A stretch of DNA of 64,000 bases from Candidatus Latescibacterota bacterium (GCA_965204725.1 OZ242005.1:5184001-5248000); one strand, 5' to 3'; positions 1 to 21,562 are shown, counted from the first letter of the stretch. The notes: generated by a model not told the origin, from the sequence alone. Program-made: numbers and translations.

Positions 1-1
1 C

Positions 2-880
2 ACCGCGCCAGCGGATGCGGCCAAGCCGGCGACGCCGGCGGGAACGGAGCGAAAAGAAGACCTTGAACTGTCCCAGCAACGCGAAACAAAAATCACACCC
101 CCGATGAACCAACCATTTGAGATACAAGAGATCACGATTTATGGCGGGCACAAGGAGGTGGTTTTGGTGCTGTTAGAGGCGGTTGACGAAGGGACGCCGG
201 TTACCGGAATCGCCGGGTTGGATTCTCTGGCTGCCACCTATGGCTTGATTGGGATATATCGTACGGGTCGAAGGTCCTCTGGTCTTTATGGATACCGTTT
301 TGGGCTGACGTTTCCGCCGGGTGCGGATGTGGCCGCCATTGCCAAAGCATATAGGAACCTATCCTACATACAATCTATCAAATCGGGGGACTCCTTAACG
401 ATGAAAGGGATGCGTCCTTCTTTCAATATAGAAAACGGGGGACTACGGTTACTCGCAAAGGTGGCCGCTGGGACTGGTTCGGGGATGGCTGTTACAGCCC
501 TAGCCGTGGGTGTTCTGGACCAGATATATGATCCTCTAAGTGACCCTGACGCTAACGCTGATAGAGGATTGGGCTTTCTTTTGGCTGGTGCAGCCATCGG
601 CTGTAGTGTCGGATTCCCGTTCGGTGTGAGCTCAATCGATCCTTATGATTCTTTACCCAAGACGCTACTCGCCGGTGTTATACCGGGAGCGGTCGGCTTT
701 TCCGCTTTGCTACAAGCAGACGTGGGCATAGGGTTCTTGTTTGCGTACGTCGTCCCTGTTATTAGTTCACCTATTATGTCTGAACTATCGCGCCAGCTTC
801 CTCAAGACCGCCGGATCTCCTTCGCTTTATCCCCGACCCTCAACGGCGGCCTCTCCGCCGTTACCATGTTGCGCTTTTGA
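2..880 (+). CDS. Hypothetical membrane/surface protein (5' end runs off window); S8-propeptide-like N-terminal segment, glycine-zipper hydrophobic region, C-terminal beta-signal-like tail
   Basis: The frame of ORF 104..880 stays open back to position 2 (TAPADAAKPATP...). Contains TGIAGLDSLAATYGL...YRFGLTFP..ADVAAIAKAY and Gly-rich hydrophobic helices, and ends RISFALSPTLNGGLSAVTMLRF. Confidence 0.65.
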   Translation, partial: TAPADAAKPATPAGTERKEDLELSQQRETKITPPMNQPFEIQEITIYGGHKEVVLVLLEAVDEGTPVTGIAGLDSLAATYGLIGIYRTGRRSSGLYGYRFGLTFPPGADVAAIAKAYRNLSYIQSIKSGDSLTMKGMRPSFNIENGGLRLLAKVAAGTGSGMAVTALAVGVLDQIYDPLSDPDANADRGLGFLLAGAAIGCSVGFPFGVSSIDPYDSLPKTLLAGVIPGAVGFSALLQADVGIGFLFAYVVPVISSPIMSELSRQLPQDRRISFALSPTLNGGLSAVTMLRF

Positions 881-998
881 CCTTGCAACAAGAGAAAGCT
901 CCCCTATGTCCATCCTTAATGTCTCTATTTACATGGAAAAACTGGACAACTAACGCGATGGGGATGCAAATGACGCCTTTCGTCAGGAGGATTGTCTA

Positions 999-1919
999 AT
1001 GCGATCGTTCGTTTTTTATGTTATTGGCTTATTGGGAAGTGTCGTTATCGCTCCGGCCGTCTGTCTAGCCGAAGATTCCAACCGGTTTTCTTTCCCGCTT
1101 CCCTTGTCTCTGGCAGTTGGCGACCATTGGACCTATTCCATTGTGAAAACCCATTTGAGGTATGAAGATGATTTGAAGTTTGTAGGTAGGATCCTTGATA
1201 CGCTATCCACTGAAACTCTGACCATTCGTGTGGTAGAGTCCCTTCAGATAGAGGATCGGACCTATTTTGCGTTGAGTGACGGAGGCTTATACCGCGTAGA
1301 TGAGGAAAAGAGAACTTGGCGGTATGATACTGAGGCTGAGAGCGAGAAGGTCGTCTGGGATATATGGGGACCACTGGAATACAAAACCATCGAGTTTCCC
1401 CTTCCCGGATTGAGTCAGCTAGAACCCGCTATAGAAAGACCAGTGATCGATGAATATGCATGCGAGTACGCATGTTTTTCAAGACATGGCCCATTTGTAT
1501 GGCGCCCAGATCCTGAGTATGAGGAGGGCTATGCTTGGATTTCTACTATTGAGGTAGGTACCGTTCGACACGATTCCTATCTCGGGTACTTTATTTATGT
1601 GCCCTTTGTATGGAGTTATGACGACCTCATCAAGCTCCCAGACTGGGGTATAACCGAACTTTATGTGTTTCAGGACACACCGTATGGGACTGAGTACGTA
1701 CCGAAGGAGACTCTTGTTGTAGCACCCAACGTTGGTGTCGTTTATCATGCGTCTTTCAGCTATACCTATAATTTGACCCTTTCCCCTTCAGAGACAAAAA
1801 AAACGGAATGGGTCTTACAGGACATGCAGAAAGGCCATCCAGAAAGTACTGTTGTAGAGGATATATCCTTTGGTGCGCTAAAGCAGCGGATGACACGATC
1901 CACCTCAAAGGCTCCGTGA
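999..1919 (+). CDS. Secreted hypothetical protein with C-terminal 'TVVEDISFGALK' motif
   Basis: AGGAGG RBS upstream, N-terminal signal peptide, 306 aa, AT-richer than the flanking housekeeping genes. Confidence 0.75.
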   Translation: MRSFVFYVIGLLGSVVIAPAVCLAEDSNRFSFPLPLSLAVGDHWTYSIVKTHLRYEDDLKFVGRILDTLSTETLTIRVVESLQIEDRTYFALSDGGLYRVDEEKRTWRYDTEAESEKVVWDIWGPLEYKTIEFPLPGLSQLEPAIERPVIDEYACEYACFSRHGPFVWRPDPEYEEGYAWISTIEVGTVRHDSYLGYFIYVPFVWSYDDLIKLPDWGITELYVFQDTPYGTEYVPKETLVVAPNVGVVYHASFSYTYNLTLSPSETKKTEWVLQDMQKGHPESTVVEDISFGALKQRMTRSTSKAP

Positions 1920-2354
1920 GTTCCTCCATAAGCAATCGCCGTAGGACTGCCTGCTTTAGCTGGCCGGTGGATAGGCGCGTCCCCGTGTTCAACCACGGGG
2001 AGGCTTTGAGCGAAAGGCGGACATTTCGTATGCTTTCCCTTGCCGTGTCGCTCTTTGACAAGAGAAGAGGTAGGCGGTTCCAACCCCGAATCGCCGCAGG
2101 CGGGTTCAACGCTGATGGCGACCGGACCCGCCGATTACGGGCCTGCGGTGGCGGTGGTTCACCCGCCGCTTCCCGGCCTCGCCACGCAAGCCATGATCCC
2201 AGCACCCCCTGAGCATCTGCAATCTGTCCGGGCAGCGGTGCTCGCGAAGGCAGAATCCCTGCGGGCCGGATCGCGTCCCGTGGTGTGGGTGGTATGCCGC
2301 TGGCGTCTGAGTTATATTTATACCGCCCAAGCAAAAAGCGGAGGTCCATAGCGA

Positions 2355-4769
2355 ATGCTCGGAAGAAAAAATAGAAACCCGAACCAAGAGATCGAAGAGT
2401 ATCGGGATTTAATGCAGGTCCCGGACCGCTTTGAGAACGGCTTTACGATCAAGGCCGTCCTCGGCGTCCTCTTCGTCTCCTTTATCATGGTGCCGGGCAA
2501 TATGTACCTGAGCCTGATGATCGGCGGCTCTTTGGGGGCGGCAGCCGAGTGGGTGACCATCATCCTCTTCGCCGAAATCACCAAGCGCTCCTTTTCCTCC
2601 CTGCGCCGCCAAGAAGTCTATGTGCTGTTCTACGTGGCCGCCTCCCTGATCGCCGCCGAGACCGGCGCCTTTGAGGGCTTGCTCTACAACCAGTACTTGG
2701 TGCAATCGCCAGCCGCCAAGCAGTTCGGCATCACCAAGCTGATTCCCACGTGGGTGGCACCGCAGCCCGACTCCCTCGCCATCATCGAGCGCACCTTCCT
2801 GCACTCGGATTGGGCGATGCCCATCGTCCTCCTCGTCTTGGGGATGATCATCTCGCGCGTCAACTGGTTCACCATGTCATACGCGCTCTTCCGGCTTAGC
2901 TCCGACTACGAGCGCCTGCCCTTCCCCTTCGCGCCCGTCAACGCGCAAGGCGCTACGGCACTGGCCGAGACCACCCAAGGAGTTGAGACGTGGCGCTGGC
3001 GAGTGTTCTCGGCCGGGGCGATGATTGGCTTGGTCTTTGGCACGATCTACGTGGCCCTGCCGGCCATTACCGGCGCACTGCTGACCGAGCCGATCCAACT
3101 CATCCCCATCCCCTTTGTTGATTTCACCCAAGTCACCGGCAACTTCATCCCCGCTACGCCGCTCGGATTTACCGCCCACTTGGGGCCGATCTTCACCGGG
3201 CTGGTGGTGCCGTTCTGGGGCGTGGTCGGCACCTTTATCGGCGTGGTCGTCGCCTCGATTGCCAATCCGCTGCTCTATACTTGGACGCCGCCGTGGCGCG
3301 AGGAGCCGTACCTGAACTTGTGGCAGCAAGGCATGGGCACGGTCGAGACCTTCTTCGTCAACAACGTCGATTTCTGGATGAGCTTTGGCATTGGCACCAC
3401 CGTCGCCATCGCCATCATCGGCATCTATCAGGTCATTCAGAGCATCCGCGGGGCGAGGGCCAACGCCAGTGACGACAGCCCCCGCAGCTTTGCCACCCCC
3501 GCCGGCCGCGGCGATTTCCCAATATGGCTGGCACTGGCGCTATACGCCTTGGCCACGGCCGGCCTAATCGGCATCGCCGCTTGGCTGCTGCCGGGCATTG
3601 CCCAATTTATATGGTTCTTCCTCTTTTTTGGCTTCGTCTTCACGCCCTTTCAGTCCTTTGTCAACGCCCGCCTAGTCGGGATGGTCGGGCAGACGGTGGA
3701 TATTCCCTTTGTGCGCGAGGCGACGATCATCCTCTCAGGGTATCGCGGCGTTGACATCTGGTTCATTCCGTTTCCCTTGGGCAACTACGGCGCCCAGACC
3801 ATGAAGTTCCGCGAAATTGAGCTGACCGGCACTCAGTTCACCAGCATCATCCGCGCCGAGGTGTTCATGGTGCCCATCGTGCTCTTCACCAGCTTTCTCT
3901 ACGGCTCCTATATATGGAAACTGGCGCCAATTCCGTCGGCCTCCTACCCCTATGCCCAGCTAATCTGGCGGCTGCGCGCCTACCAGCAATGCCTCTTTAT
4001 CACCGGCACCATGCGCAGCGAACTGGCCATAGACAAGGACCGGGCGGGATGGACGCCGGCCAACCTAATCGAGAACGAGTGGTGGTACTGGCGAGTGCGG
4101 CTGGTGGATCAGGAGTGGCTGGACTCCAACGGCAAGCGCGGCCAAGTCGGCCCGTGGATGCCGACCCAAGTGTTCTACTCGTACTTCGATCCGGGAGCAC
4201 CCGACATTGTTTCCGAGCGCTACCTGCGCGACGCGCAGCAAGCCGAAGAGGAAATTGTCGCGGGCCTGCCGGCCATTGCCCCGCTGGGGCCGGCCATGGA
4301 CACCATCATCCGCGACCCCCGCCCGACCCTCGAAGTGCAGGTCGAGCGAGCCGTGCCGGCGGGATGGTCTTTTTACTTTGAGGTCGATACCGATCCGCTC
4401 TTTACCAGCTCTTGGATCCAGCGATCCACCGACGTGCCTTGGCTCTTTAGGGCGCTGAAAACCGAGGTCATCGCCTTTGGGGCCGGCTTCGGGCTGGTGA
4501 GCTTTGTTCTGCTGTCCATTCTCGGGCTGCCGATCTTGCTGATCTTTGGCTTCGTGCGCTCGCTGACGTCGCTGCCGCATTTCGTGGTGACCGAGATCAT
4601 CGGCGCATTCTTGGCCCGCTACTACTTCTGGAACAAGTACGGGCGGCAAGAGTGGCGGCAGTTTGCCCCCATTCTGGCGGTGGGCTTTTCCTGCGGCATG
4701 GCGTTGATGGGCATGGCGTCGGTGGGGATCGCCCTGATCCAGAAATCGGTCTCCGTGCTGATTTTCTAG
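2355..4769 (+). CDS. OPT/YSL-superfamily-like oligopeptide transporter with an inserted soluble Ig/FN3-like domain
   Basis: 804 aa, many TM helices; N-terminal GFTIKAVLGVLFVSFIMVPGNMYLSLMIG and LRRQE motif resemble OPT proteins; GGAGG RBS. Confidence 0.75.
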   Translation: MLGRKNRNPNQEIEEYRDLMQVPDRFENGFTIKAVLGVLFVSFIMVPGNMYLSLMIGGSLGAAAEWVTIILFAEITKRSFSSLRRQEVYVLFYVAASLIAAETGAFEGLLYNQYLVQSPAAKQFGITKLIPTWVAPQPDSLAIIERTFLHSDWAMPIVLLVLGMIISRVNWFTMSYALFRLSSDYERLPFPFAPVNAQGATALAETTQGVETWRWRVFSAGAMIGLVFGTIYVALPAITGALLTEPIQLIPIPFVDFTQVTGNFIPATPLGFTAHLGPIFTGLVVPFWGVVGTFIGVVVASIANPLLYTWTPPWREEPYLNLWQQGMGTVETFFVNNVDFWMSFGIGTTVAIAIIGIYQVIQSIRGARANASDDSPRSFATPAGRGDFPIWLALALYALATAGLIGIAAWLLPGIAQFIWFFLFFGFVFTPFQSFVNARLVGMVGQTVDIPFVREATIILSGYRGVDIWFIPFPLGNYGAQTMKFREIELTGTQFTSIIRAEVFMVPIVLFTSFLYGSYIWKLAPIPSASYPYAQLIWRLRAYQQCLFITGTMRSELAIDKDRAGWTPANLIENEWWYWRVRLVDQEWLDSNGKRGQVGPWMPTQVFYSYFDPGAPDIVSERYLRDAQQAEEEIVAGLPAIAPLGPAMDTIIRDPRPTLEVQVERAVPAGWSFYFEVDTDPLFTSSWIQRSTDVPWLFRALKTEVIAFGAGFGLVSFVLLSILGLPILLIFGFVRSLTSLPHFVVTEIIGAFLARYYFWNKYGRQEWRQFAPILAVGFSCGMALMGMASVGIALIQKSVSVLIF

Positions 4770-4770
4770 C

Positions 4771-5763
4771 ATGAGCGATTGGGTGGATTTCGCGTGGCAG
4801 GGGCTGCGGTTGTCCGTGCCCGACGACTGGAACCTCGGCCGGGTTGACGGGGATTTTGAAAAGGGCTATGCCCGCCTCGACGACGCCGAGATCGTGCGCG
4901 CCGAGATTGAATGGCGGCGTCTCAGAGGCCGCGGCGAGGCCCTGCGCCTGACCGAGCTGGTCGATCGCTACTTGGCCAACCTGCAAAAGAAGGCCCAAAA
5001 GGCCGATGCTCCCTTTGAGGTTGAGCGCCGCGCCCGATTCCTCAAAAACAAGAAGTTCCTCCAAGGCCGCGAATACGAGGTCTTTATATGGGAGGCCGAT
5101 TTCCGGGCGTACAACCTCGCGCTCGCCTTGGGGTCTGGGCGGGTTGTGCTCCTGCGGGTGTTGGCCCGGCTCGATGAGTTTTTGCCCGAGCAAGCCGAGG
5201 CCGTGTTCAGCTCACTCGCCGACCAAGAAGCCGAGGCCGCTCACCTGTGGAGCGTGTACGGCTTGCGGTTTTTCGCGCCCAGCGACCTCAAGCTCCAAAG
5301 CCATTCCCTCAAGTCGGGGCACCTCCAGCTAGAGTTTACCCGCGGCAAACAGACGCTGCGGGTCCATCGGCTGAGCATGGCCCGAATCATGCTCAAAGGC
5401 GCGGCCATCCAAGACTGGTACCCGGTCTTTTTTAAGAAGCCGTTGCGCGACTTGGTGGTGGATGTTGTGCCAGAAGCCGTGCGAGAATGCGAGGGCATTC
5501 GCATTGAGGGGCGGCCGCGCAGCCGCTGGCGTCAGTTGCTGCGCCCCCTGCCCTTTATGAACCCGAGGCCGCGCCTGTATATGCGAGGGCGCGTCTGGCG
5601 CGATACCGGCCTCGACAAAATCGCAATCGTTGAGCACCTCTATCGCAAGAAAGACTCAGAAGACGATCTCGTCGCCAAGGTAGTAGATGGGCATTTTATC
5701 GAAAAACAAGGGACCCAAGCTGAGCCGGGCCGCCATGCTGGCGTCGCGGCCAACGCGCAATGA
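4771..5763 (+). CDS. Hypothetical soluble protein with internal duplication (PsbP/DcrB-like halves)
   Basis: Starts 1 nt after the OPT stop; repeated motifs FAWQGLRLSVPDDWNL and WSVYGLRFFAPSDLKL. Confidence 0.7.
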   Translation: MSDWVDFAWQGLRLSVPDDWNLGRVDGDFEKGYARLDDAEIVRAEIEWRRLRGRGEALRLTELVDRYLANLQKKAQKADAPFEVERRARFLKNKKFLQGREYEVFIWEADFRAYNLALALGSGRVVLLRVLARLDEFLPEQAEAVFSSLADQEAEAAHLWSVYGLRFFAPSDLKLQSHSLKSGHLQLEFTRGKQTLRVHRLSMARIMLKGAAIQDWYPVFFKKPLRDLVVDVVPEAVRECEGIRIEGRPRSRWRQLLRPLPFMNPRPRLYMRGRVWRDTGLDKIAIVEHLYRKKDSEDDLVAKVVDGHFIEKQGTQAEPGRHAGVAANAQ

Positions 5764-6118
5764 ATCCCTGCGCTGGGAGCACAACGACACCGGCGAAATC
5801 CAAGTCTTTATAACACGCCAAGATACTTGGAAGGTCAGGCTGCTGTCCAAGTTTTTCTACATCCCCAAACAGCGCAAAATCACCCTCGACGAAGTAGGCA
5901 GCGAGGTCTGGCGGATGTGCAACGGCCGCAATTCGGTTGGCAGGATGATCGACCTGCTCAGCGACCAGTACCAACTCAACCGCAAGGAGGCCGAAGTCTC
6001 CCTGCTCCAATACTTGAAGACCCTTGGGCAGAAGCGCTTTATCGGCTTTGTGCTAGAGGGCGACGAAAGGCCGCCCGACCGCGGCGCGGCCAGCGGAAAA
6101 AAATGGCAAAAGAAATAA
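5687..6118 (+). CDS. PqqD family / RiPP recognition element (RRE)-like protein
   Basis: ITLDEVGSEVWRMCNGRNSVGRMIDLLSDQY...LLQYLKTLGQKRFI matches the PqqD winged-helix pattern. Confidence 0.8.
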   Translation: MGILSKNKGPKLSRAAMLASRPTRNESLRWEHNDTGEIQVFITRQDTWKVRLLSKFFYIPKQRKITLDEVGSEVWRMCNGRNSVGRMIDLLSDQYQLNRKEAEVSLLQYLKTLGQKRFIGFVLEGDERPPDRGAASGKKWQKK

Positions 6119-6723
6119 GCAGGGGCGGGCGATTGGCTCGTCCCTGTTTTCGTCTGCACCCGCACCGGGCCGCCCGCTTCCTCTCGCACGTGCTCAATCC
6201 CGCGCTGTTGGCGCTGTTGGTATTCGGCGTTCAAGCGCACGGGCAGGACGCTTGGCTCGCCGGCGCGGTGGCGATCGGGGCCTTCTCCTTAATACCCGGG
6301 TTGCTACTGTGGCGCTTGGTGCGGTCGGGCTATCTCGACCAAGCCTATACCGACGACCGCCCCAAACGCGCTACCCTGCTCTTGTTGGGCGCGCTGTGCT
6401 ATGCTTTGGGGACGGCCGCCCTCTACGGCATTGACGCTCCGCCGCTGATGCGGGTCACGGCCGCGGCTGGTGTGGTCAGTACGCTCTTGGTCTGGTGGAT
6501 CAATCGCTCCTACAAGATCAGCATTCACGCGGCTGGTATTGGGGGGGCAACCTGCGTATTGTTGCTCAGCACTGGCGGCGCGGCGTGGCCCTGCTTGTTG
6601 AGTTGGCCGGCCGTCGCTTGGGCGCGGCTTTACTTGCGGGCGCATACGCCCATGCAGCTCGGGGCGGGCGGTGCGCTGGGCGCGGGGAGCATGGCCCTGT
6701 TGTACAGTGCTTTCATACCGTGA
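6103..6723 (+). CDS. PAP2-like membrane protein (phosphoesterase-related)
   Basis: ATG at 6103 overlaps the PqqD gene end; motifs KISIHAAG and WARLYLRAHT; several TM helices. Confidence 0.7.
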   Translation: MAKEISRGGRLARPCFRLHPHRAARFLSHVLNPALLALLVFGVQAHGQDAWLAGAVAIGAFSLIPGLLLWRLVRSGYLDQAYTDDRPKRATLLLLGALCYALGTAALYGIDAPPLMRVTAAAGVVSTLLVWWINRSYKISIHAAGIGGATCVLLLSTGGAAWPCLLSWPAVAWARLYLRAHTPMQLGAGGALGAGSMALLYSAFIP

Positions 6724-6732
6724 GCGCGGCCG

Positions 6733-8925
6733 ATGAACCAATTGTATAAAGGCTTTATAGATCGCCTGACCTACCACAACCCGGAAAACGGCTATACCAT
6801 TGCGCGCTTAGTCGTAGAGGGCCAGCGCGAGCGAATCGCCATCGTGGGGGCACTGGCCTCCATCCAAGAGGGCGAGAGCGTCGAAGTCGAGGGCGCGTGG
6901 ACCAATCACCCCAAATACGGCAAGCAATTCAAGGTAGCGCATTATAAGGCCGTTTATCCCTCGACCCTTGAAGGGATGCAAAAGTACCTCGGGTCCGGCT
7001 TGATCAAAGGCGTCGGGCCGAAGTCGGCCAAGCGCATCGTCGAGCACTTTGGCGCGGAAACGCTCGACATCATCGACGCGGATCCCAGCCGGCTAGCGGA
7101 AGTGCCCAAACTGGGCAAGAAGCGGGTTGAGCTGATTGCCGCGGCGTGGGACGAGCAGCGGCAAATCAAGGACGTAATGGTCTTTTTGCAGTCGCACGGG
7201 ATTACCACCGGCTACGCGGTGAAAATTTTTAAGACCTACGGTCAAGAGGCCATCCAAAAGGTCCGCAGCGATCCCTATCGCTTGGAGCGCGATGTGGATG
7301 GGATCGGCTTCCGCATCGCCGATCGCATTGCCCAGCGCCTAGGACTCAGCCGCGACGCCCCCGAGCGTGTGCAGGCCGGCATCCGCTACCTGCTCTCGCA
7401 AGCCGCCGACGAAGGCCACGTGTACTTGCCGGCCGTCAAAATGATGGAGCGAGCCGTCGAAATTTTGACCATCAACGCCGAGTTGTTGCCGCCGGCATTG
7501 GAGGCCCTGCGCGCCGACGATGGCGTGGTCACCGAAGACCTGCGCTATTATCTGCCGCCGCTCCACCGGGCCGAAGTGGGTGCCGCATCGTCGCTAAAGC
7601 GCCTTTTGCACACACCGGCCCAAGAGTTGGTCGTGCCCGCAGAAGACGAGGACGGGCTAGAGTTGGCTCCGGCGCAAAAACAGGCTGTGGCCTGGGTTGC
7701 CACGAGCAAAGTGCTGGTGCTGACCGGCGGGCCGGGCACGGGCAAGACCACGGTCACGCGGCGCATCTTGCGCCTTTTGGAGGAAGGGGGCCTCGCGGTG
7801 GCACTGTGCTCGCCCACGGGCCGTGCGGCCAAGCGGCTGAGCGAAGCAAGCGGGCGCGCGGCCAAGACCATTCACCGGCTGCTGGAATTTCAGCCGGGCG
7901 AGCGGCAGTTCAAAAGGGGCTACGACAACCGCCTCAAGCTCGACGCCCTGATCGTCGATGAGGCTTCCATGATCGACGTGGTGCTGATGAACGCGCTCCT
8001 GCGCGCCTTGCCCGACCACGCTCGGGTGGTGCTCGTCGGTGACATCGACCAGTTGCCCTCGGTGGGGCCGGGCAACGTGCTCCGCGACATTATCGACTCC
8101 GCCAAAGTGCCGGTGGTGCGCCTGACGCAGATTTTTCGCCAAGCCCAAAAAAGCCACATCATCCGCAACGCGCACCGCGTCAACAACGGCGAAATGCCCA
8201 TCGTCGATAACCATGCGGGCGCGGATTTCTACTTTATCCAAGAAGGCGACCCGGAGCGGGTGGTCGAGCGGGTGGAGGAGCTGTGCGCCACGCGGCTGCC
8301 CCGCTATCGGGGGTGGGATCGACGCGCCGACATCCAAGTGCTCGCGCCCATGTATCGCGGCGAGACCGGCGCGCTCAACCTCAACCAGCGCCTGCAACAG
8401 CGCCTCAACCCACACGGCCCAGTGCATCGCCATCGCGGGGCCGAGTTCCGGGTGGGGGACAAGGTCATGCAGGTCAAAAACGACTACGACAAGGGCGTTT
8501 TTAACGGCGACATTGGCACGGTCGAGCGGCTCGACGCGGAAAATCAGGTGCTCTACGTGCGCTTTGACTCCACCTTGGAATACGATTCCGTTGATCTCGA
8601 CCAGCTGACCCTCGCCTACGCCATCAGCATCCACCGCTCGCAGGGGTCGGAATTTCCCGTGGTGGTCCTGCCGCTGACCACTCAGCACTACGTGATGCTC
8701 CAGCGCAACCTGCTCTACACGGCCATTACCCGTGCCAAGCAGCTAATCGTCATCGTCGGCACCTCCAAGGCCCTCAAGCTGGCCATTGCCAACGATCAGG
8801 TAGCCCAGCGCTTCACCACGCTCAAAGAGCGGCTGTGCGATGAGGTCGGCTCGGTACTAAAAGCCGGGCAAGCGGCCAACGGAGCATTGGAAGCACCCGA
8901 GCCGAGAAAGGCCGAAAACTTATGA
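6733..8925 (+). CDS. recD2: ATP-dependent RecD-like DNA helicase
   Basis: N-terminal OB domain plus HhH (YLGSGLIKGVG), Walker A GGPGTGKT, DEASM, GDIDQLPSVGPG, HRSQGSEF. Confidence 0.95.
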   Translation: MNQLYKGFIDRLTYHNPENGYTIARLVVEGQRERIAIVGALASIQEGESVEVEGAWTNHPKYGKQFKVAHYKAVYPSTLEGMQKYLGSGLIKGVGPKSAKRIVEHFGAETLDIIDADPSRLAEVPKLGKKRVELIAAAWDEQRQIKDVMVFLQSHGITTGYAVKIFKTYGQEAIQKVRSDPYRLERDVDGIGFRIADRIAQRLGLSRDAPERVQAGIRYLLSQAADEGHVYLPAVKMMERAVEILTINAELLPPALEALRADDGVVTEDLRYYLPPLHRAEVGAASSLKRLLHTPAQELVVPAEDEDGLELAPAQKQAVAWVATSKVLVLTGGPGTGKTTVTRRILRLLEEGGLAVALCSPTGRAAKRLSEASGRAAKTIHRLLEFQPGERQFKRGYDNRLKLDALIVDEASMIDVVLMNALLRALPDHARVVLVGDIDQLPSVGPGNVLRDIIDSAKVPVVRLTQIFRQAQKSHIIRNAHRVNNGEMPIVDNHAGADFYFIQEGDPERVVERVEELCATRLPRYRGWDRRADIQVLAPMYRGETGALNLNQRLQQRLNPHGPVHRHRGAEFRVGDKVMQVKNDYDKGVFNGDIGTVERLDAENQVLYVRFDSTLEYDSVDLDQLTLAYAISIHRSQGSEFPVVVLPLTTQHYVMLQRNLLYTAITRAKQLIVIVGTSKALKLAIANDQVAQRFTTLKERLCDEVGSVLKAGQAANGALEAPEPRKAENL

Positions 8926-9692
8926 ATGAATACCACGCTGCCAACAAGAAACGCTGGAATCGGGCCGCGCCTCAGTACGCGGAAAAGCAAGACAAAAAGG
9001 GAACGTGGCGGATTGCCCACCAGCAGCCAGAAGTCGTCTTCCTCGAGCGAGAATTGGAGCTGATGGGCCAAGTTCGCAATCGAGACGTCTGCGTGCTCGG
9101 CAGCGGCGACAACGTCGCGGTATTCGCCTTGGCGGGCATGGGCGCCCGCGTAACCTCGGTTGATATTGCCAGCGAACAGCTAAAGGTGGCGCAGCAGCGG
9201 TCCGCCGAACTCGGCTTGAGCGTCCAGTACGTCGAAGCGGACGTAACCAACCTCTGCGGCTTGGCGAGTGCGGCCTTTGATCTCGTTTACACGGGCGGGC
9301 ACGTCGGAGTCTGGGTCGCTGATCTGCGAGCGTACTACCGCGAGGCCATTCGCATTCTGCGGCCAAGCGGCCTGCTCTTAATCAACGAGTATCACCCCTT
9401 CAGAAGGATATGGAAGGACCAAAAGACGGCATTAGCGGTTGGGTACAGCTACTTTGACAATGGACCCCACCGGTACCACGCTTCCGCCGAGCTGCTGTCC
9501 GATAGGTCCGCTGGCGACACCGTGCAGTACGAGTTTCACTGGACAGTGACCCAGTATCTCAAGGCCGTTATCGAGCAAGGCGTGGAGTTGGTTGAGTTTG
9601 AGGAGCTGGGGGACGCGGCCGAAGGCTGGGAGTATGCGCCGCTGGCGGGGCTGCCGCAAATGCTGCTGATCGCTGGCCGAAAGCGGCCCTAG
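8922..9692 (+). CDS. Class I SAM-dependent methyltransferase
   Basis: VCVLGSGD motif I, VTSVDI, FDLVY, LRPSGLL; ATGA overlap with recD2. Confidence 0.85.
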   Translation: MNEYHAANKKRWNRAAPQYAEKQDKKGTWRIAHQQPEVVFLERELELMGQVRNRDVCVLGSGDNVAVFALAGMGARVTSVDIASEQLKVAQQRSAELGLSVQYVEADVTNLCGLASAAFDLVYTGGHVGVWVADLRAYYREAIRILRPSGLLLINEYHPFRRIWKDQKTALAVGYSYFDNGPHRYHASAELLSDRSAGDTVQYEFHWTVTQYLKAVIEQGVELVEFEELGDAAEGWEYAPLAGLPQMLLIAGRKRP

Positions 9693-10417
9693 CCGTCTTC
9701 CTCAACGAGGAGGGTATGCACCTCGGCCTCGGCCCCGCGCTGCTGGTCTTGCGGCTGGATGCGATAGCCGATCACGACCGCCAAAGTAGCCTGCAAAAAC
9801 ACCGCGTTCAGGGCATCGGCCGCCTGTCGTACCCGCTCCAAGTCGCGTTGGCTGATGGCGTTAGACACCTCGATGGCGACCCACACGGGGGCGCGATCGG
9901 CCTTGCGCTGCGCCCGGACGATGAGGTCGGTCGCGTTAATGCGGGTTTCCTGCCCGTCGTCAATGCCTCCCGCATCAAAGGCATCTTCCACAGGCTGGAA
10001 TAGTTCGGGACGGGTGTCTTGGACCGGACTTTGCATAACCTGCGCCCGCCGCAGACCCAGCCGCTGGCTGAGCAGCGGTCGAATCCGCCGATGGAGCTTT
10101 ATTTCCAACATGTCGCCCTTGAGCGTGGCTACGTCGATTTTGAGTTCGGCGACATCGGCTTCTACCCGCGTCATGCGAGTTTTGAGTTCAGCGACATCGG
10201 CTTTGAGTTCGGCGACGTCGGCTTCTACCCGCTCCAAGCGGATTTTGAGTTCGGCGATGTCGGCCTCTATCCGCTCCAAGCGGATGGGCATGCCGAGGAA
10301 TTCGTTGGTCAGCAAGGCCCGCAATAACAGAGTCTGGGCATTGGGGTCGGCTTGCAACTCGGCGACAATGCGAGTTACCAAGGACTCGGAGTCAAGGGAA
10401 ACGGGTGTCGTAGTCAT
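9689..10417 (-). CDS. Coiled-coil heptad-repeat protein with possible degenerate PD-(D/E)XK-like C-terminal domain
   Basis: Repeats of (E)ADVAELK; C-terminal TDLIV...VAIEVS...DLERV. Confidence 0.75.
   Translation of the reverse strand: MTTTPVSLDSESLVTRIVAELQADPNAQTLLLRALLTNEFLGMPIRLERIEADIAELKIRLERVEADVAELKADVAELKTRMTRVEADVAELKIDVATLKGDMLEIKLHRRIRPLLSQRLGLRRAQVMQSPVQDTRPELFQPVEDAFDAGGIDDGQETRINATDLIVRAQRKADRAPVWVAIEVSNAISQRDLERVRQAADALNAVFLQATLAVVIGYRIQPQDQQRGAEAEVHTLLVEEDG
10118..10285. repeat. Intragenic 21/42-nt heptad tandem repeats
   Basis: TTTGAGTTC(G/A)GCGA(C/T)(A/G)TCGGC occurs four times and CCGCTCCAAGCGGAT twice. Confidence 0.85.
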
Positions 10418-10525
10418 GGCCTATCCTACATGGTTGGCGGTGCCTTCGCCTTCGGGGCGGCGCACCTAGAAGATAATATAGACGAAGCGAAACAAAGCAA
10501 AGCGCGAGGCTTCACCCAGATATAA

Positions 10526-10542
10526 AGCAATATACGTGCCAG
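10526..10542 (-). promoter_or_regulatory. Sigma54 (RpoN) -24/-12 promoter
   Basis: Minus strand reads CTGGCACGTATATTGCT, an exact match to YTGGCACGN4TTGCW, about 110 nt upstream of ORF 9689..10417. Confidence 0.7.
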
Positions 10543-10681
10543 CATCGACTATCGGGTAACGGGGGCTTGCGGGCGGCGTACACTGTGTCGGGAAAGATAC
10601 ACTGTTGGGTTGTTTATGGGTCTTGGTCGCTGGGGGGCAATAGCGGCTGCGCGGGCAACCGACCCGGCCGATCTAGGGCAC

Positions 10682-13600
10682 TCAGGCGACCGCAACCTTG
10701 TCGTTTGTCGTCGTTACTGCGCCGTCCTGCACCAGCTTTTTCAGGGCGGAGCTTACCTTTTGATTCGCCTTAGCCGTGACGCGGCGAAAGCCCATCAGCG
10801 ATAGGGCCTCGGCAATGGCCTCGGCTTCCGATAGGCTAAAGGCTGCGCGGATTGCCGTGAGCAAGGCTACGCGAACTTCCTCGTCGGGCACCAGCTCAAT
10901 GTTCTTCACGGTGGGCGGCATGTCCGAGCGGTCACGCACCCGGACGGGCTTGTCGCTGTCGGCAAACAGGAAGTCGCCTTCAAGGTGGAGGAGGCCGTTT
11001 CTGTGCCCGCATTCGGCGGCCCGTTTTATGTGCCCGAGCATTCTCGAACCCACGCGGGCAAAGCCGGCTGATTCAGCGAGTCGCCGAGCCGCCTCGGTCA
11101 GGTGAACGGGGCCTTCAATGTCGATCACCTTGCGCATGGCTTGCGCGACGTCGCCTAGGGGCAACTCGTGGATCTCGGCGGATTCGTCAAGGCCCAAATC
11201 GCCCGTGGCCAGCACATAAGGGGGGGCCTGCAAGTTGTTTTCCGTCGGCTCATCGCGGATGATGACGGGCGGTGTGGGCTTGGACGGTGGGCTTTCTTCG
11301 GCCGCGTGCAATGCTTGGGCAATGGAATCCTTGAGGCGGGTGCTTTCTCTATGGGGATCCCGGAACCAGTCGGTACTCCAGATGCGATGGAAGCGCCAGC
11401 CCAAGCCCTCCAGCACGCTTTGGCGCAAGCGGTCGCGGTCGCGGGCTGTTGCTGAACTGTGATAACTCGCGCCGTCGCACTCTACGGCCAAAATGTAGCG
11501 GCCGGGCTTTTGGGGGTCGCGCACGGCAATGTCAATGTAAAAGCCCGCCGAACCCACTTGCGGCTCGATGTCGTAGCCCAGCCGGCGAATGGCGTCGCTG
11601 ACGGCCTCCTCAAACGGCGAATCCGGCTCCTTCCCGGTCTCGTCGCGGTGGTGCTCTAGTTCGCCGGTCTGCGCGTAGTGCAAGAAGCTCTTTAAGGCGC
11701 GCACCCCAAACGGCGAATGGCCCTCGGTTTTCATGTCGTCCGCCGTAAAGTTGCTAAAGACTTCCATCGCCAAGCGGGCGCGGGTGATCAACACGTTCAA
11801 GCGGCGCTCACCGCCCTCGCGGTTCACCGGACCAAAACTCGCGCTCATGTTGCCAGCGGCCGTGCGGCCATAGCCAATGCTAATGAAAATCACGTCGCGC
11901 TCATCCCCCTGCACGTTCTCCAAGTTTTTTACAAAAAAGCCCTCTAGCGCACCCGTGGTGAAAAATTCCTCGCAACTCGGATCGAGACGCCGCAACCGCT
12001 CGATTTCCAGCAAAATACAGTCGCGCTGAGCGGTCGAAAACGCGACCACTCCCAAGGTTAGGTCCGGGTGCGCTTGGGCGTGGTGCATGACCGCCTCGGC
12101 TACGGCGCGTGCCTCCAGCGGGTTGGTGCGCGAACTGCCGCGCTCGTACACCGACTCGGGCAGGTGGTTAAACGCCAACCCCTTGGCGTAGGGATTCACC
12201 CCGGGACTGGGGAAGATCATCAAGCGGCCCCCGTAAAACTCCCGGTTGGAAACGGCAATCAGGGAATCGTGTCGGCTCCGATAGTGCCAGCGCAACATGG
12301 ACTCCGGGGCTCCTTGCGACAAGAACATGCTCAGAATGCTCTCAATGTCGGCGGTCTGGCTTTCTTCGTCCTCTAGCTCCAAGGCTTTGGTAAAGAAGTC
12401 GGTCGGTGGCATCTGGCGCGTATCCCCGACCACCACCACCTGTTTGCCGCGCAGAATCGGGCCGATTGCATCGACCACTTTCACCTGACTGGCTTCGTCA
12501 AACACCACCAAGTCAAAGTCCAACGCGCCCTGCTCCAAGTAGGTCGCCACCGACATCGGGCTCATCATAAACACGGGCTTTATTTGCTGAATCGCCCGGC
12601 CGGCTTGGGCGATTAGCTGGCGAATCGGTATGTGGCGGCGCTTCTTGTTTATCTCGCGGCGAATAATCGCCATCTGGCCGGCCGCGTTGGCGGCCGGCAA
12701 GCGGCGGTAGTGCCTCAAGACCAAGGCTTCTTGGGCGTGGTGGAGCAGTTCCTCGTCCAAGCGTCTAAATTCGGCGATGGCGCTTTCGTGGCTGGTCCGG
12801 TTAAACCGCTTGATCGCCTCGCTCGTGCTATACGCCTCGTGTACCAAGCCCTCGTAGTAGGCTTTCTCGAGGGCGGTCAGCAGCAGGGCTGGGGGGCCTG
12901 CCCAGTCGTAAGCCAAGCGGTCGATTTGTTCCAACTCGCTGGCGCACAGTTTTTTTCTGAGGTGGTTGTAGTGCGCCATCGGTTCTAAGGCACCAATTTG
13001 GTCGCGCCAGCGATTGAGCTCGTCTGCGAGTTCGTCCAACGGCCGGTCTTCAACCGATCGCGCCTTGGTCCCCAACCGCTGGCTCACCTCGTGGATTCGC
13101 TCTTTTAGCTCGCCCGCGGTGCGCTCGATCTCCGCCAACTGGTCAGCGCACCCTTCGAGTTTCCCGCCATCCTGCAAGAATTTTAGCACGCCTTCCGGCA
13201 CCGCGCCCTCGCCCACTTCTCGGTGCAACTCGACGATCCAAGCACTGAGCACCTTCAATGCAGGCCAATCGCTGCGCGGCCCCTTCCATTGGGTCCCCAA
13301 CAGGCTTTCGCCCAAGTGCTCATGCTCGGTGTATGCCGCACGCAGGGCTTGGCATTTGAGGATGTCGTCGATGAGAGCTACGCAGGCGTTGGCCTCGGCG
13401 GGCAGCTCGCCTTTTACCAGACCTTGCAGCGTGCGGCGGGCGCGGCCGAAGCTGGGAAAAATAAAGCACCACCAGTGTCGGCCCGTAGTGGCCCACGCTT
13501 GGCGCACACTCAGTAGGTCGGCCTGCCAAGCCTGCTCGATCACTTGCTCGCGCCGCTTGTCTTGCAAGGCCGCCATTTCTGCGCCGGCTTGGAGCAGGGC

Positions 13601-15331
13601 CTCGATTTGCTCGCTGCGGTATTGCCAGTCCGCAGCGGTTAGCGGTACGCCCGCTAGGGGCGGCGCATTCAGCACGCGCTCGCCAGCGCGGCCTATCGCC
13701 CGCATGGCGGCGAGGGTTGCCGGGCGGTCTAGGCCCATCTTTTCGGCTAGGGAGTCCCCCAATTTCCGGCCGTTATCGAGTGCTGCGAGTGCTTGGGTCA
13801 AGCAAGTGACGATTTCGTTTTGCTCAATCGGTGAAACGTGCTCTAGCGTCGATTCGGCAAAGGGACTCTGGGCCGGAGTGCCCATTGCCTCTAAATGCGC
13901 AACCAGTTCGCGCACGTGCGCACAGGCGTTTGTAAAGGCCGCTTCGTCCCAATGGCGAAACCCGGCAAAGTCCAGTGCCGGCAACTCGCGCTCACCGGCT
14001 TCTTCGCGCAGCTTGAGGAGGTGCCCTTGGGCATTTATGTAGCTCGTTCCCGAAGTCAGGATGGGGCGGTTCACCGCACGACAATACGCATCGAGTTGTT
14101 GGCGTAGCTCGGCGTGGCGGTGCTTTTTGGCCTCGTGATTTTCTACGGCTGGCGGGCCGAGTTCCAACGTGCGCCTCAGCTCTTGCAGGACGGCACTCTT
14201 ATTGCTCTTGTGGCTGTGCAGCTCCAGCACGGCATCGCCCAAGTGGCATTCGTCGAGGCGGCGTTTTACCACCTCTAAGGCCGCCATCTTTTCGGCGACA
14301 AAGAGCACGGTCTTTTCGTCGGCCAGAACCTCGGCGATGATATTGGTAATGGTCTGCGATTTGCCCGTGCCCGGCGGCCCTTGAATTACCAAGTTGGAGT
14401 CTTGCTTTACCGCCATGACCGCTTGCGTTTGGCTGGAGTCCGCGTCCAACACAAAGTGGAGATCCGCGAGCTCGACCGTGACCGCCTCTTCATGCGGCGT
14501 TGCGGGCAACCCATCGCCGCCGCCGCCAAACCCGTTGGCGAGCAGTTTTTGCAACACCTCGTGGTCGTGGGGCTTGTGCCCTTCGGGCCAATTGTCTGGG
14601 TCTAAGTCCTGATACATCTGGAACTTGCCGAAAGAAAAAAAGCCGAGCGCGATTTCGTCGGCCTGCACCTGCCAGCGCGGCTGATGCTCCACGCCAGCGG
14701 CCACTTCCTTTAAGTACCCATCGAAGTCTAGCTCTTCCCCGAACTCCGGCAGCGTTATCTCGAACTCGCTTTTTAGTTTGTTGGCAAGCGTCAAGTTCGG
14801 GCCGAGGTCGGCCTGCGTGTACGCCACCTTGTAGCGCGCCCTCGCGCTGACGCGCTCCAGAGAAACCGGCACCAATACAAGCGGTGCTTTGCGGGGTGTG
14901 GAAGAGCTTTCGGCTTCGTACCAAGTCAAGAAGCCCAAGGCCAAATACAACAGATCGACGCCCTGCTCTTGGTAGTAGTTTTCGGCCTCCGCGCTGATCT
15001 TTAGCAGGCTTTTATCGAGCGCGTCTGCGGAGAGTTTGGTTTGCAGGCGGTTGTCGGTATGGCGGCGATCTGCGTCCTCATCCTCCAAAATTTGGGGCAG
15101 TGCTTGCGGGTCGCTTTCGTCCTCCATTGACGCGGGCGCGGGGATAAACGCCATTTGCTTTTGTTCGACTACCAATAGCCGAAACACCTCCCGCGCCTTC
15201 TCGTCGATTACGGCAAGCGTTTTCGCGCCGGGACGAAAGTTGAGCAGCGTATTGCCGCGCAGGCCCATGTCCAATAATTCCGACCGGCTGACATCGAGTT
15301 TTTCGGCTAACGCGGCCACCCCAATCCTCAT
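10682..15331 (-). CDS. DUF4011 - SF1 helicase (AAA_11/AAA_12) - Vsr/MTES_1575-like nuclease - DUF3320 protein (Hhe-type anti-phage defence)
   Basis: LLDMGLRGNTLLNF (DUF4011), GPPGTGKSQTI, FDEASQV, WHYRS, NLENVQGDERD, AVECDGASYH...RDRDRLRQ..LEGLGWRFHRIWSTDW. Probable start is the ATG at 15331 overlapping the upstream TGA (1549 aa). Confidence 0.85.
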   Translation of the reverse strand: MRIGVAALAEKLDVSRSELLDMGLRGNTLLNFRPGAKTLAVIDEKAREVFRLLVVEQKQMAFIPAPASMEDESDPQALPQILEDEDADRRHTDNRLQTKLSADALDKSLLKISAEAENYYQEQGVDLLYLALGFLTWYEAESSSTPRKAPLVLVPVSLERVSARARYKVAYTQADLGPNLTLANKLKSEFEITLPEFGEELDFDGYLKEVAAGVEHQPRWQVQADEIALGFFSFGKFQMYQDLDPDNWPEGHKPHDHEVLQKLLANGFGGGGDGLPATPHEEAVTVELADLHFVLDADSSQTQAVMAVKQDSNLVIQGPPGTGKSQTITNIIAEVLADEKTVLFVAEKMAALEVVKRRLDECHLGDAVLELHSHKSNKSAVLQELRRTLELGPPAVENHEAKKHRHAELRQQLDAYCRAVNRPILTSGTSYINAQGHLLKLREEAGERELPALDFAGFRHWDEAAFTNACAHVRELVAHLEAMGTPAQSPFAESTLEHVSPIEQNEIVTCLTQALAALDNGRKLGDSLAEKMGLDRPATLAAMRAIGRAGERVLNAPPLAGVPLTAADWQYRSEQIEALLQAGAEMAALQDKRREQVIEQAWQADLLSVRQAWATTGRHWWCFIFPSFGRARRTLQGLVKGELPAEANACVALIDDILKCQALRAAYTEHEHLGESLLGTQWKGPRSDWPALKVLSAWIVELHREVGEGAVPEGVLKFLQDGGKLEGCADQLAEIERTAGELKERIHEVSQRLGTKARSVEDRPLDELADELNRWRDQIGALEPMAHYNHLRKKLCASELEQIDRLAYDWAGPPALLLTALEKAYYEGLVHEAYSTSEAIKRFNRTSHESAIAEFRRLDEELLHHAQEALVLRHYRRLPAANAAGQMAIIRREINKKRRHIPIRQLIAQAGRAIQQIKPVFMMSPMSVATYLEQGALDFDLVVFDEASQVKVVDAIGPILRGKQVVVVGDTRQMPPTDFFTKALELEDEESQTADIESILSMFLSQGAPESMLRWHYRSRHDSLIAVSNREFYGGRLMIFPSPGVNPYAKGLAFNHLPESVYERGSSRTNPLEARAVAEAVMHHAQAHPDLTLGVVAFSTAQRDCILLEIERLRRLDPSCEEFFTTGALEGFFVKNLENVQGDERDVIFISIGYGRTAAGNMSASFGPVNREGGERRLNVLITRARLAMEVFSNFTADDMKTEGHSPFGVRALKSFLHYAQTGELEHHRDETGKEPDSPFEEAVSDAIRRLGYDIEPQVGSAGFYIDIAVRDPQKPGRYILAVECDGASYHSSATARDRDRLRQSVLEGLGWRFHRIWSTDWFRDPHRESTRLKDSIAQALHAAEESPPSKPTPPVIIRDEPTENNLQAPPYVLATGDLGLDESAEIHELPLGDVAQAMRKVIDIEGPVHLTEAARRLAESAGFARVGSRMLGHIKRAAECGHRNGLLHLEGDFLFADSDKPVRVRDRSDMPPTVKNIELVPDEEVRVALLTAIRAAFSLSEAEAIAEALSLMGFRRVTAKANQKVSSALKKLVQDGAVTTTNDKVAVA

Positions 15332-21062: not shown

Positions 21063-21562
21063 GCGAGACACGCGGTTATTCGTACGGGGACTTTCTGCTC
21101 GACCCGCAAAAGACGCGCTTCAGCCGGTCCAAGCGCGGCAGCTTGATTCTCCATCTCGACGACGAGGAATACACCGACCTCAAGGTCCGCCGCGCCTTCC
21201 CATTAGAAGAGTCCGACCGCTATATCGGCGTCTTTGCCGCCGAAGACCGCGAACTCGGCCTCATTGAAGACCCGCAGCAGCTCGACGACCAAAGCCGCCA
21301 AGTGCTGCTAGACGAACTCGACAAGGTGTACTTTCAGCCGCAGGTCCTTGCTTTTAATCGCCTCGACGAAGAGTTCGGCGTGTTGCGCGGCCAGATCGAA
21401 ACCACCAGCGGCCCCCGCCAACTCGAAATCCGCAGCTACCGCACCAACGTCCGCATGCTCTCCGGCAACCGAGCCGTCATCGAGGACGTCGATGGCAACC
21501 GCTACTTGATTGCCAACTGGCGAGCGCTGCCGCAAAAGACGCGCGAGATTCTGGGGCTTTAA
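21059..21562 (+). CDS. DUF1854 domain protein
   Basis: VRRAFPL...YIGV...ELGLIED...TTSGPR...IEDVDGNRYLI; coupled to the ABC gene, a known pairing. Confidence 0.8.
   Translation: MSETRGYSYGDFLLDPQKTRFSRSKRGSLILHLDDEEYTDLKVRRAFPLEESDRYIGVFAAEDRELGLIEDPQQLDDQSRQVLLDELDKVYFQPQVLAFNRLDEEFGVLRGQIETTSGPRQLEIRSYRTNVRMLSGNRAVIEDVDGNRYLIANWRALPQKTREILGL

Follow-up and report, generated by a model that had tools for sequence, protein, structure and literature searches.

What does a protein of the PqqD family do beside a transporter gene, when no pathway for peptides made by ribosomes and modified after translation (RiPPs) or for pyrroloquinoline quinone (PQQ) is found around it? The question is raised by four tightly packed open reading frames (ORFs) on the plus strand of a stretch of 64,000 nucleotides from a Candidatus Latescibacterota bacterium (GCA_965204725.1 OZ242005.1:5184001-5248000), the whole of which is called the window below. 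An initial annotation had placed the four ORFs at exactly the same coordinates and had proposed that the RiPP recognition element (RRE) of the PqqD protein serves as a cytoplasmic adaptor for a peptide transporter. The genes, named here A to D, and a domain inserted in A are as follows:

2355-4769, plus strand: gene A, an 804-aa polytopic membrane protein, putatively a very divergent member of the OPT/YSL superfamily
4020-4424, plus strand: inserted domain of A, predicted to be beta-rich, about residues 556-690 of the protein
4771-5763, plus strand: gene B, a 330-aa soluble protein with two predicted PsbP/Mog1/DcrB-like alpha/beta-sandwich domains
5687-6118, plus strand: gene C, a 143-aa PqqD-family (RRE-type) protein
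6103-6723 (in an ORF covering 5827-6723), plus strand: gene D, a 206-aa membrane protein with weak PAP2-like motifs

The tight coupling described in that annotation, a gap of one nucleotide followed by overlaps, is borne out by the junctions. A GGAGG at 2340-2344 lies ahead of the ATG of A, whose TAG stop (4767-4769) is separated by a single base from the ATG of B at 4771. The ATG of C at 5687 is placed 77 nt ahead of the stop of B, and the ATG of D at 6103 is placed 16 nt ahead of the stop of C.

In related genomes A, B and C form the distal part of a larger gene cluster, a context which the initial annotation had missed. This cluster encodes a membrane system that appears to be undescribed. 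The best overall explanation of the locus, which we hold tentatively, is that A-B-C are the promoter-distal part of this conserved membrane-system cluster and that B and C together provide a peptide-binding accessory to it; as we infer, the likeliest role of B-C is to bind peptides in the cytoplasm as an accessory of a composite OPT/MacB-type membrane system.

The conservation of the trio was examined on a large set of loci. Species-representative genomes were scanned with a profile made from an alignment of A, which gave at least 601 confirmed stretches, and 79 loci with 8-kb flanks were analysed by hidden Markov models (HMMs). They are distributed as follows: 31 loci are orthologous to the window (A of ~800 aa, 58-94% identity), and 48 others contain A relatives of ~650 aa with 40-52% identity. 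In at least 10 cases, a locus of the second group is a second copy in the same Latescibacterota genomes; this group also spans Armatimonadota, Planctomycetota, Verrucomicrobiota, Kiritimatiellia, Lentisphaeria, Nitrospiraceae, Desantisbacteria and Hydrogenedentes. A neighbourhood check of the A-B-C association had been set beforehand, and the association is upheld by it: B and C directly follow A in 28 of the 30 orthologous loci for which downstream DNA is available (the exceptions are L019 and L021), and the pair is also found in other phyla. Five of the 48 non-orthologous loci contain B and C, downstream of A in L027, L058 and L078, and about 7.5 kb upstream of it in L051 and L053; in two loci (L052 and L054) C alone is present at the edge of the locus. 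The pair is thus also met beside distant relatives of A in Planctomycetota, Verrucomicrobiota and Kiritimatiellota, in gene orders that differ. In a FastTree tree of 78 A proteins, the loci with B-C fall in three separate clades, which are the orthologous clade, a clade of the Planctomycetes-Verrucomicrobia-Chlamydiae (PVC) group, and L078.

A profile search for longer relatives of C identified two composite proteins. The first, P0391 (482 aa; two members, each on its own contig), is a predicted B-C fusion, in which residues 5-292 are matched by the HMM of B and residues 359-479 by that of C. The second (P0392, 595 aa, 18 members) is composed of a C-type PqqD N-terminus, a hydrophobic segment and a ~470-aa domain of no recognised family; no homologue of this C-terminal part was found in the loci, and PF27149, the precomputed family assigned to it, is missing from the Pfam copy used. 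B and C go together as an inherited pair: their reading frames overlap or adjoin, and one natural fusion of the two is predicted. The conservation of A-B-C, the recurrence of B-C in other phyla, the fusion, and the absence of RiPP or PQQ genes beside the sampled loci (see below) together give good support to the view that this PqqD protein is tied to transporter genes and not to a RiPP maturase. One Latescibacterota metagenome-assembled genome (MAG) also contains a tandem duplication of A, with two ~800-aa copies ahead of B-C (L012:475-5507).

The larger cluster includes a giant gene, encoding ~1500-1700 aa. Of the 75 loci where A was called and DNA upstream of it is available, 72 have this gene upstream of A and on its strand. 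In 59 cases it directly precedes A and in 13 cases one to three genes lie between; the exceptions are L018, L040 and L041. The giant protein is composed of an N-terminal hydrophobic segment, a ~850-aa hydrophilic region with Peptidase_M28 and PA domains, a cluster of transmembrane helices, a MacB_PCD domain and an FtsX domain. It matches the aminopeptidase YwaD (6hc6) with E~1e-10 and MacB (5lil) with E=5e-9; one example is the gene at L014:3194-7987. A ~650-aa protein made of DUF6785 and DUF6784 is a recurrent neighbour (31 of 79 loci), and comparison of the A family with the DUF6785 family by hhalign (probability 84.7%, E=6.6e-6 over 441 columns) indicates a distant homology between them. 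The PVC loci add ATPases of LolD/MacB/FtsE type and a second, LolC/E-like FtsX permease. Their recurring gene order is [B-C]-FtsX permease-ATPase-giant-A-ATPase, and that of L078 is giant-A-B-C-FtsX-ATPase; in the orthologous Latescibacterota loci, no ATPase was found within 8 kb. Beyond this core, the neighbours are variable and consist of unrelated housekeeping genes. The neighbourhood analysis recommended for finding additional conserved partners has thus supplied them: the giant MacB-type permease and the DUF6785/6784 protein, with ATP-binding cassette (ABC) ATPases and an FtsX permease besides in the PVC loci. In the literature searched, DUF6785 and DUF6784 are named in no paper, and no relevant paper joins FtsX, M28, MacB and aminopeptidase.

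To what extent A deserves the name of OPT-like protein can be judged from its relatives and from its predicted fold. We found 2988 homologues of A at E<=1e-3, the best 120 of which are ~805 aa long and 66-93% identical to it; among these 120, the homologues named by their source are all "hypothetical", and the MAGs are labelled Latescibacterota, Gemmatimonadetes or Handelsmanbacteria. A profile built from 27 homologues reached 1040 representative clusters at E<=1e-3 and 376 at E<=1e-30. Of 35 relatives scanned with Pfam, 11 match PF03169 (OPT), 8 of them above the gathering score of 25.8 bits and the best with 64.2 bits. A itself gave no NCBIfam match, and no PDB sequence match by phmmer or by profile search, so that its link with OPT at the sequence level is a transitive one: the relatives reach PF03169 and A does not. 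The AlphaFold2 model of A (69 sequences; mean predicted local distance difference test score, pLDDT, 88.9; predicted template modelling score, pTM, 0.87) has the transmembrane fold of OPT/YSL proteins. Foldseek comparison with PDB returned two matches at E<=1e-3, both to barley Yellow Stripe 1 (HvYS1): 7wst_A, with E=6.5e-10 and a TM-score on the target (TMt) of 0.66, and 7wsr_A, with E=1.7e-9; the next match has E=0.016. A preprint, in passages on the subject, takes 7WSR as the experimental reference structure for comparing models of the OPT family (bioRxiv 10.64898/2026.08.27.747422). The Atlas matches of A are unnamed Latescibacterota clusters only, the top one, probably A's own, being automatically labelled "Peptide transporter family protein". 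The label OPT-like therefore stands for the predicted fold and for the PF03169 matches of the relatives, and falls for A's own Pfam and NCBIfam searches; on the model, A is OPT-like at the level of superfamily and fold, though it fails the family model itself.

Many A relatives are 615-700 aa long, and their matches to the profile extend to about position 547 and resume at the C-terminus. This split indicates that relatives of ~620-700 aa are devoid of the inserted domain. In A, residues ~556-690 form a conserved Trp-rich domain, beta according to the secondary structure of the model, with invariant columns from W566 to D693 in the orthologous clade. At the same position other A relatives contain PDZ, Reg_prop, WD40 or FGE-sulfatase domains, as identified by Pfam; relatives with such varied inserts are P0241, P0243, P0244, P0247 and P0259-P0261. 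The presence of different domains at one position suggests that it is occupied by a swappable module binding a ligand or a partner.

The assignment of C to the PqqD family, already made in the initial annotation, is confirmed by profile comparisons, and C can be taken on this basis as a genuine PqqD/RRE-family protein. It matches PF05402 over residues 65-119 with 41.5 bits (cutoff 23.4; E=1.7e-10), and a profile of 23 homologues matches solved RREs in PDB: a lasso-peptide PqqD chaperone (9x90_B, 1.8e-6), two PqqD proteins (3g2b, 4.7e-5; 5sxy, 8.3e-5) and TbiB1 (5v1u, 3.1e-4). Its scores are below the curated NCBIfam cutoffs of the individual classes, namely 28.9 for 80 with lasso_PqqD_Bac, 27.3 for 46 with PQQ_PqqD, 27.6 for 100 with geo_PqqD_fam and 17.4 for 110 with WgkC. 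In the alignment of 23 homologues, a shared N-terminal motif, ML-x-S/T-R-P-x-R-N, precedes the PqqD domain.

The overlap between B and C was analysed by codon-position entropy on 28 aligned sequences. Up to position 5686 the most variable position is the third codon position of B; from 5687 on it is the third position of C, as in the region coding for C only. Selection in the 77-nt overlap thus follows the frame of C, which indicates that C starts at or near 5687, inside B, and that the last ~25 codons of B, which overlap C and have no constraint in the B frame, are an unconstrained read-through. This agrees with the low pLDDT of the tail of B and with its absence from distant B proteins. The C-terminal tail of B was considered as a ligand of the RRE and rejected, since it is absent or different in distant B proteins and its conservation follows the C frame.

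B has no Pfam or NCBIfam match and no PDB sequence match below E=0.6; 120 homologues were found by sequence, most of them in Latescibacterota-type MAGs. Its AlphaFold2 model (35 sequences; pLDDT 86.3, pTM 0.82) consists of two alpha/beta-sandwich domains, at residues ~4-147 and 157-306, followed by a disordered tail (pLDDT below 50 for residues 312-330). The two-repeat structure announced by the initial annotation is thus retrieved at the level of the fold, and not at that of the sequence, where the two halves have no significant mutual similarity (BLASTP E=0.28). Foldseek gave 18 PDB matches at E<=1e-3, which include the tandem immunity proteins of type VI secretion systems (T6SS) TplEi/Tli4 and PA3488, and single-domain PsbP proteins with TMt of 0.50-0.67; CyanoP and Mog1 are matched with probability 1.00 and E of 2.7e-3 to 9e-3. 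The Atlas look-alikes DUF3805, Alr1449, DcrB and LpqN have scores of 0.80-0.82, below 0.9, and are taken as leads only. B contains neither a signal peptide nor a hydrophobic segment, and on this last ground is probably cytoplasmic.

How could these elements work together? Characterised OPT proteins transport peptides or metal chelates, and RREs bind leader peptides, which they receive as an added beta-strand. The proteins of the A family, the giant protein, the DUF6785/6784 protein, the ATPases and the FtsX permease would form one inner-membrane machine, in which A would work as a secondary transporter whose ligands are peptides or resemble them, like the characterised OPT proteins. B and C would form a cytoplasmic heterodimer, where the RRE of C would bind a short peptide segment as an added beta-strand and the double PsbP-like B would act as a scaffold or chaperone. 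Given these proposed properties, B-C might receive imported peptide cargo, or might dock on a cytoplasmic tail of the transporter or of the ABC components in order to couple or gate them. Such a cargo- or partner-recognition module, made of an RRE and a double PsbP-like scaffold and docking on an OPT-like/MacB-type inner-membrane machine, is a precise version of this mechanism, and it is this version that we regard as doubtful. Leader-peptide binding by RREs is also described in passages of the RRE-Finder paper (PMC7470986), and a further link with peptides in the present system is one A relative with a PDZ domain at the insert position. A genome analysis of Latescibacteria, in its passage on oligopeptide uptake, mentions ABC transporters only (PMC4454575).

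Several observations weigh against this reading. A has no Pfam family at E<=0.01 and stays under the gathering score of PF03169, and the residues of A that track the presence of B-C amount to a single column, which is uninformative. B-C is missing within 8 kb in 41 of the 48 non-orthologous loci, and also within 8 kb of the second giant/A locus of the same Latescibacterota genomes, which indicates that the machine works without it. In the PVC loci, the neighbours of B-C are the genes for the FtsX permease and the ATPase, and A is about 7 kb away; the partner of B-C may hence be the ABC part of the system and not the OPT-like A. MacB-type transporters are known for mechanotransmission and for export or extraction, and are not known for uptake. 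Lastly, the Glu-Glu pair which we take to be catalytic and metal-binding in M28 peptidases occurs in none of the 36 giant proteins with residues at that position (40 aligned), HH, HF and HY being found there in most cases; the positions that presumably correspond to the His-x-Asp and the bridging Asp of M28 peptidases are mostly Y-Y-D and E-Q. In the absence of the Glu-Glu pair, the "aminopeptidase" of the giant protein may be one by its fold only, and the argument for peptides is weakened accordingly. The same domain also weakly matches nicalin, presumably a non-catalytic M28-like protein.

A second reading is that of peptide export or processing, perhaps by an unrecognised RiPP-like pathway. 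C would recognise the leader of a ribosomal peptide whose gene lies elsewhere or is a small ORF missed by annotation, B would be a scaffold or a new modifying or holding protein, and the MacB-type pump, the ATPases and the OPT-like proteins would export and trim the peptide. The closest matches of C, which are lasso-peptide and PQQ RREs, fit this reading, as do the PVC loci, where B-C directly precedes the FtsX permease and ATPase genes and where the ATPases score well against models of darobactin and bacteriocin export ATPases, though also against LolD and MacB. The RRE-Finder paper, in the relevant passages, takes a gene like pqqD in the vicinity of enzymes and transporters to indicate a RiPP cluster; it also mentions discrete RREs whose class is unknown, and discrete RRE matches that in some cases do not co-occur with known machinery (PMC7470986); another paper, in its part on discrete RREs, places them mainly in lasso and PQQ clusters (PMC12710340). 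The genes around C point the other way. The initial annotation had reported no RiPP maturase or pqq gene nearby, and none was found, either among the 48 scanned ORFs of the window or among the scanned neighbours of the sampled related loci, precursor peptides not having been searched systematically; the sole radical S-adenosylmethionine (SAM) gene of the window is BioB-like (62491-63489). From A to the RecD2 gene which follows D, the genes of the window lie too close together to accommodate a precursor, and in L027 the 415-nt gap between A and B contains no convincing precursor-like small ORF, small ORFs not having been surveyed systematically. B has no enzyme-like fold match by Foldseek. On this balance we consider the export reading unlikely.

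A third reading removes free peptides from the system. The giant protein and the OPT-like and DUF6785 proteins would handle a lipid, lipoprotein, glycan or cell-wall substrate of the envelope, and B-C would be an assembly or holding chaperone, perhaps comparable with the DUF1795/Eag chaperones, which we take to have a related fold and to hold hydrophobic segments. The similarities with FtsX, MacB_PCD, LolC/E and LolD speak for such a function; the M28-like domain, non-canonical and nicalin-like, and the varied inserts of the A relatives, which include beta-propellers and FGE-sulfatase, are consistent with it, and so are the T6SS immunity proteins in the fold class of B, the DcrB-like proteins found as Atlas leads only, and the PAP2-like character of D. 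Against these similarities stand the established transport of peptides or metal chelates by characterised OPT members and the fact that PqqD-family proteins are known as peptide binders; moreover, D is not conserved with the system. The chances of the envelope reading seem to us poor.

We give a small probability to a regulatory role of B-C, in which C would be a winged-helix DNA-binding or signal-sensing protein and B its ligand-binding partner, together controlling the expression of the cluster or the activity of the ATPase. Passages of the RRE-Finder paper relate RREs structurally to winged helix-turn-helix regulators and admit that some discrete non-RiPP "RRE" matches may bind DNA (PMC7470986). 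A conserved basic tail, ASGKKW, is present at the C-terminus of the Latescibacterota C proteins, and B-C is dispensable in most related loci. This tail is missing from the PVC and L078 homologues, however, and the matches of C are to PqqD models and to solved RREs, none being to a DNA-binding Pfam family at E<=0.01; the operon-distal position and the overlapping frames would also fit a stoichiometric subunit better. It is very improbable, finally, that A-B-C have no functional link and are adjacent through synteny inherited within one phylum, as the Latescibacterota-type origin of most sequence-found B homologues and the mere synteny of D at this locus might suggest, since in Planctomycetota, Verrucomicrobiota and Kiritimatiellota the pair is again associated with distant members of the system, the gene order not being the same, and was seen only beside genes of this one system in the loci examined, a biased sample in that all are anchored on A.

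Membership of the proposed peptide-binding accessory and its membrane system does not extend to D. This protein most likely starts at ATG 6103, and exactly this 206-aa protein is found as a public gene call. It has at least four hydrophobic segments. The name PAP2-like given to it beforehand holds as a weak resemblance in motifs and score, and not as a family assignment: the match to PF01569 has 17.5 bits for a gathering score of 27.2, and a PDB profile search returned glucose-6-phosphatase only, with E=0.16. K-I-S-I-H and R-x5-H-x3-Q are invariant in 15 homologues, to be compared with the PAP2 signature, which we take to be KxxxxxxRP / PSGH / SRxxxxxHxxxD; a clear first PAP2 motif was not seen. 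D is present in 24 loci: in 12 cases it adjoins C, and in 12 cases it is parted from C by a reverse-strand flagellin gene or by other genes. Most of these loci have it immediately ahead of RecD2, and no non-orthologous locus contains it; we therefore treat it as a syntenic neighbour, outside the system. D does not belong to the conserved gene set and travels with RecD2, not with the trio. The flagellin gene (Flagellin_N and Flagellin_C, on the opposite strand) is found between C and D in L003, L005-L007, L010, L016, L022, L023, L048 and L075, for example at L005:11810-12970 on the minus strand; L010 also has an IS1595-type transposase at this place.

The window differs from its nearest relatives upstream of A. 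In these relatives (A of 92-94% identity) the gene order is NusG_II - Gx-transporter-like - DUF6785 - giant - A - B - C - D - RecD2. The flanks of A-D in the window are as follows:

1-2347: left flank of low GC content, non-homologous to relatives, with two orphan genes
2/104-880, plus strand: Gly-rich membrane protein, orphan
999-1919, plus strand: orphan protein, its N-terminus resembling a signal peptide
6733-8925: RecD2 helicase, starting 9 nt past D
8922-9692: methyltransferase, after RecD2

Alignment of six close relatives with the window by blastn gives ~89% identity from 2348/2349 on, and nothing upstream matches. This onset is placed 7 nt before the ATG of A, just past the stop of the giant gene in the relatives. 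The GC content of positions 1-2347 is 0.48-0.54, compared with ~0.61 elsewhere. The ~435 nt which separate the orphan gene at 999-1919 from A, where relatives have the giant gene, contain no convincing gene. The giant, DUF6785, c7 and c8 proteins of L014 found nothing in the window by tblastn, and the HMMs of the giant, DUF6785 and FtsX permease proteins found nothing in the 64 kb. The cluster of the window is truncated: A-B-C, with D, remain behind a new upstream region of ~435 nt, and the rest has been lost or separated. The three low-GC ORFs upstream of A have no homologue among the 79 loci and no Pfam, NCBIfam, PADLOC or PHROGs match, no tRNA was detected in 1-12000 and no Rfam match in 1-10500, and a scan for promoters and terminators gave results not usefully above those of shuffled sequences. 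The low-GC segment that abuts A may have arisen by insertion or rearrangement, or may reflect a join made in assembly. The orphan protein of 999-1919 and D are recorded together on one contig of 5.38 Mb, and each is recorded with a cluster member on a contig of 1.12 Mb; these shared records argue weakly against an assembly chimera.

The remainder of the 64 kb is ordinary chromosome, with genes for ATP synthase, NQR, glycolysis, DnaE and SecG, and the blastn blocks show rearrangements, among the closest relatives, in the DNA downstream of RecD2. Some other features were noted. A 1703-aa helicase-nuclease with DUF4011, AAA_11, AAA_12, REase_MTES_1575 and DUF3320 domains is encoded at 10682-15793 on the minus strand. 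On the plus strand, 18771-21562 encodes a fused ABC exporter (ABC_membrane and ABC_tran), with a DUF1854 protein after it. He_PIG and FlgD_ig domains occur in a 1467-aa protein encoded at 22186-26589 on the same strand, near which lies a small Gp49-like (DUF891) ORF, of a type found in toxin-antitoxin pairs (27148-27456, plus strand). A 991-aa ORF on the minus strand (43811-46786) has no Pfam match at E<=1e-5. It shares 239 nt with an 856-aa plus-strand ORF (46548-49118), which was outside the Pfam scan set; one of the two may be spurious.

The consequences of a peptide-binding B-C accessory would extend beyond this locus. If the recognition module proposed above is real, it would be the first case of an RRE fold serving transport or cargo selection instead of the guidance of a maturase, conserved from Latescibacterota to PVC phyla. 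A conserved PqqD lineage whose only constant partners are a PsbP-like protein and transporter genes may be either a systematic false positive for RRE-based RiPP mining or a new use of a peptide-recognition fold. RRE/PqqD domains are presented, in the relevant passages of two papers, as a class-independent hook for the mining of RiPP clusters (PMC7470986, PMC12710340). The surrounding cluster is common, with the at least 601 confirmed stretches in species-representative genomes and the 1040 representative clusters of the A family; its source-named members that we saw are all "hypothetical".

The system can finally be compared with the known families to which its members are related. With OPT/YSL proteins (PF03169; HvYS1, PDB 7WSR/7WST), A shares a predicted fold which, among solved structures, matches HvYS1 only (TM-score 0.63-0.66 on the target), and its relatives score above the PF03169 gathering threshold; A itself differs in being under every Pfam, NCBIfam and PDB sequence threshold, in its ~135-aa beta-rich insert, and in the clustering of its family with genes for a PqqD protein and a permease of MacB type, a setting not reported previously for OPT genes, to our knowledge. 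The DUF6785/DUF6784 family (PF20581/PF20580) is distantly homologous to A, but is a separate family: A matches neither model, and the window contains no member. Compared with TplEi/Tli4 and PA3488, its best Foldseek matches (E=2.5e-5 to 1e-3), B has the same tandem alpha/beta-sandwich domains, whereas identity is ~10%, with no relation at the sequence level, and the whole-chain TM-score is ~0.32-0.36, a low value due to a different orientation of the domains; these immunity proteins are periplasmic and encoded beside a Tle lipase effector or T6SS genes, whereas B has no hydrophobic N-terminus and its neighbours are transporter genes, with no T6SS or lipase effector gene nearby.

C, small and soluble, belongs to the same sequence family (PF05402) as the discrete RREs, i.e. 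PqqD of PQQ synthesis and the lasso B1 chaperones such as TbiB1. The setting that would mark C as one of them, a precursor peptide together with pqqA-E or with a maturase such as a radical SAM enzyme, a lasso cyclase/protease or YcaO, was found neither among the scanned ORFs of the window nor among the scanned neighbours of related loci. C is also distinguished from them by an extra N-terminal part of ~50 residues with its own conserved motif, by scores below all class-specific NCBIfam PqqD cutoffs, and by its constant partner, the tandem PsbP-like protein. As for the type VII ABC systems MacB, LolCDE and FtsEX, their characteristic set of an FtsX permease, a periplasmic core domain and an ATPase is found in the related loci and not in the 64-kb window: the partners there are a permease with MacB_PCD and FtsX, ATPases like LolD, MacB and FtsE, and a LolC/E-like permease. 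The giant permease departs from these systems by its size of ~1600 aa, its ~850-aa PA/M28-like ectodomain, its extra transmembrane helices, and its constant pairing with OPT-like proteins, in loci other than the window, where the gene is missing. The OPT-like and MacB-type transporter classes are not known to us to work together. The combination brought to light by these comparisons is one of known folds in what appears to be an arrangement not previously described.

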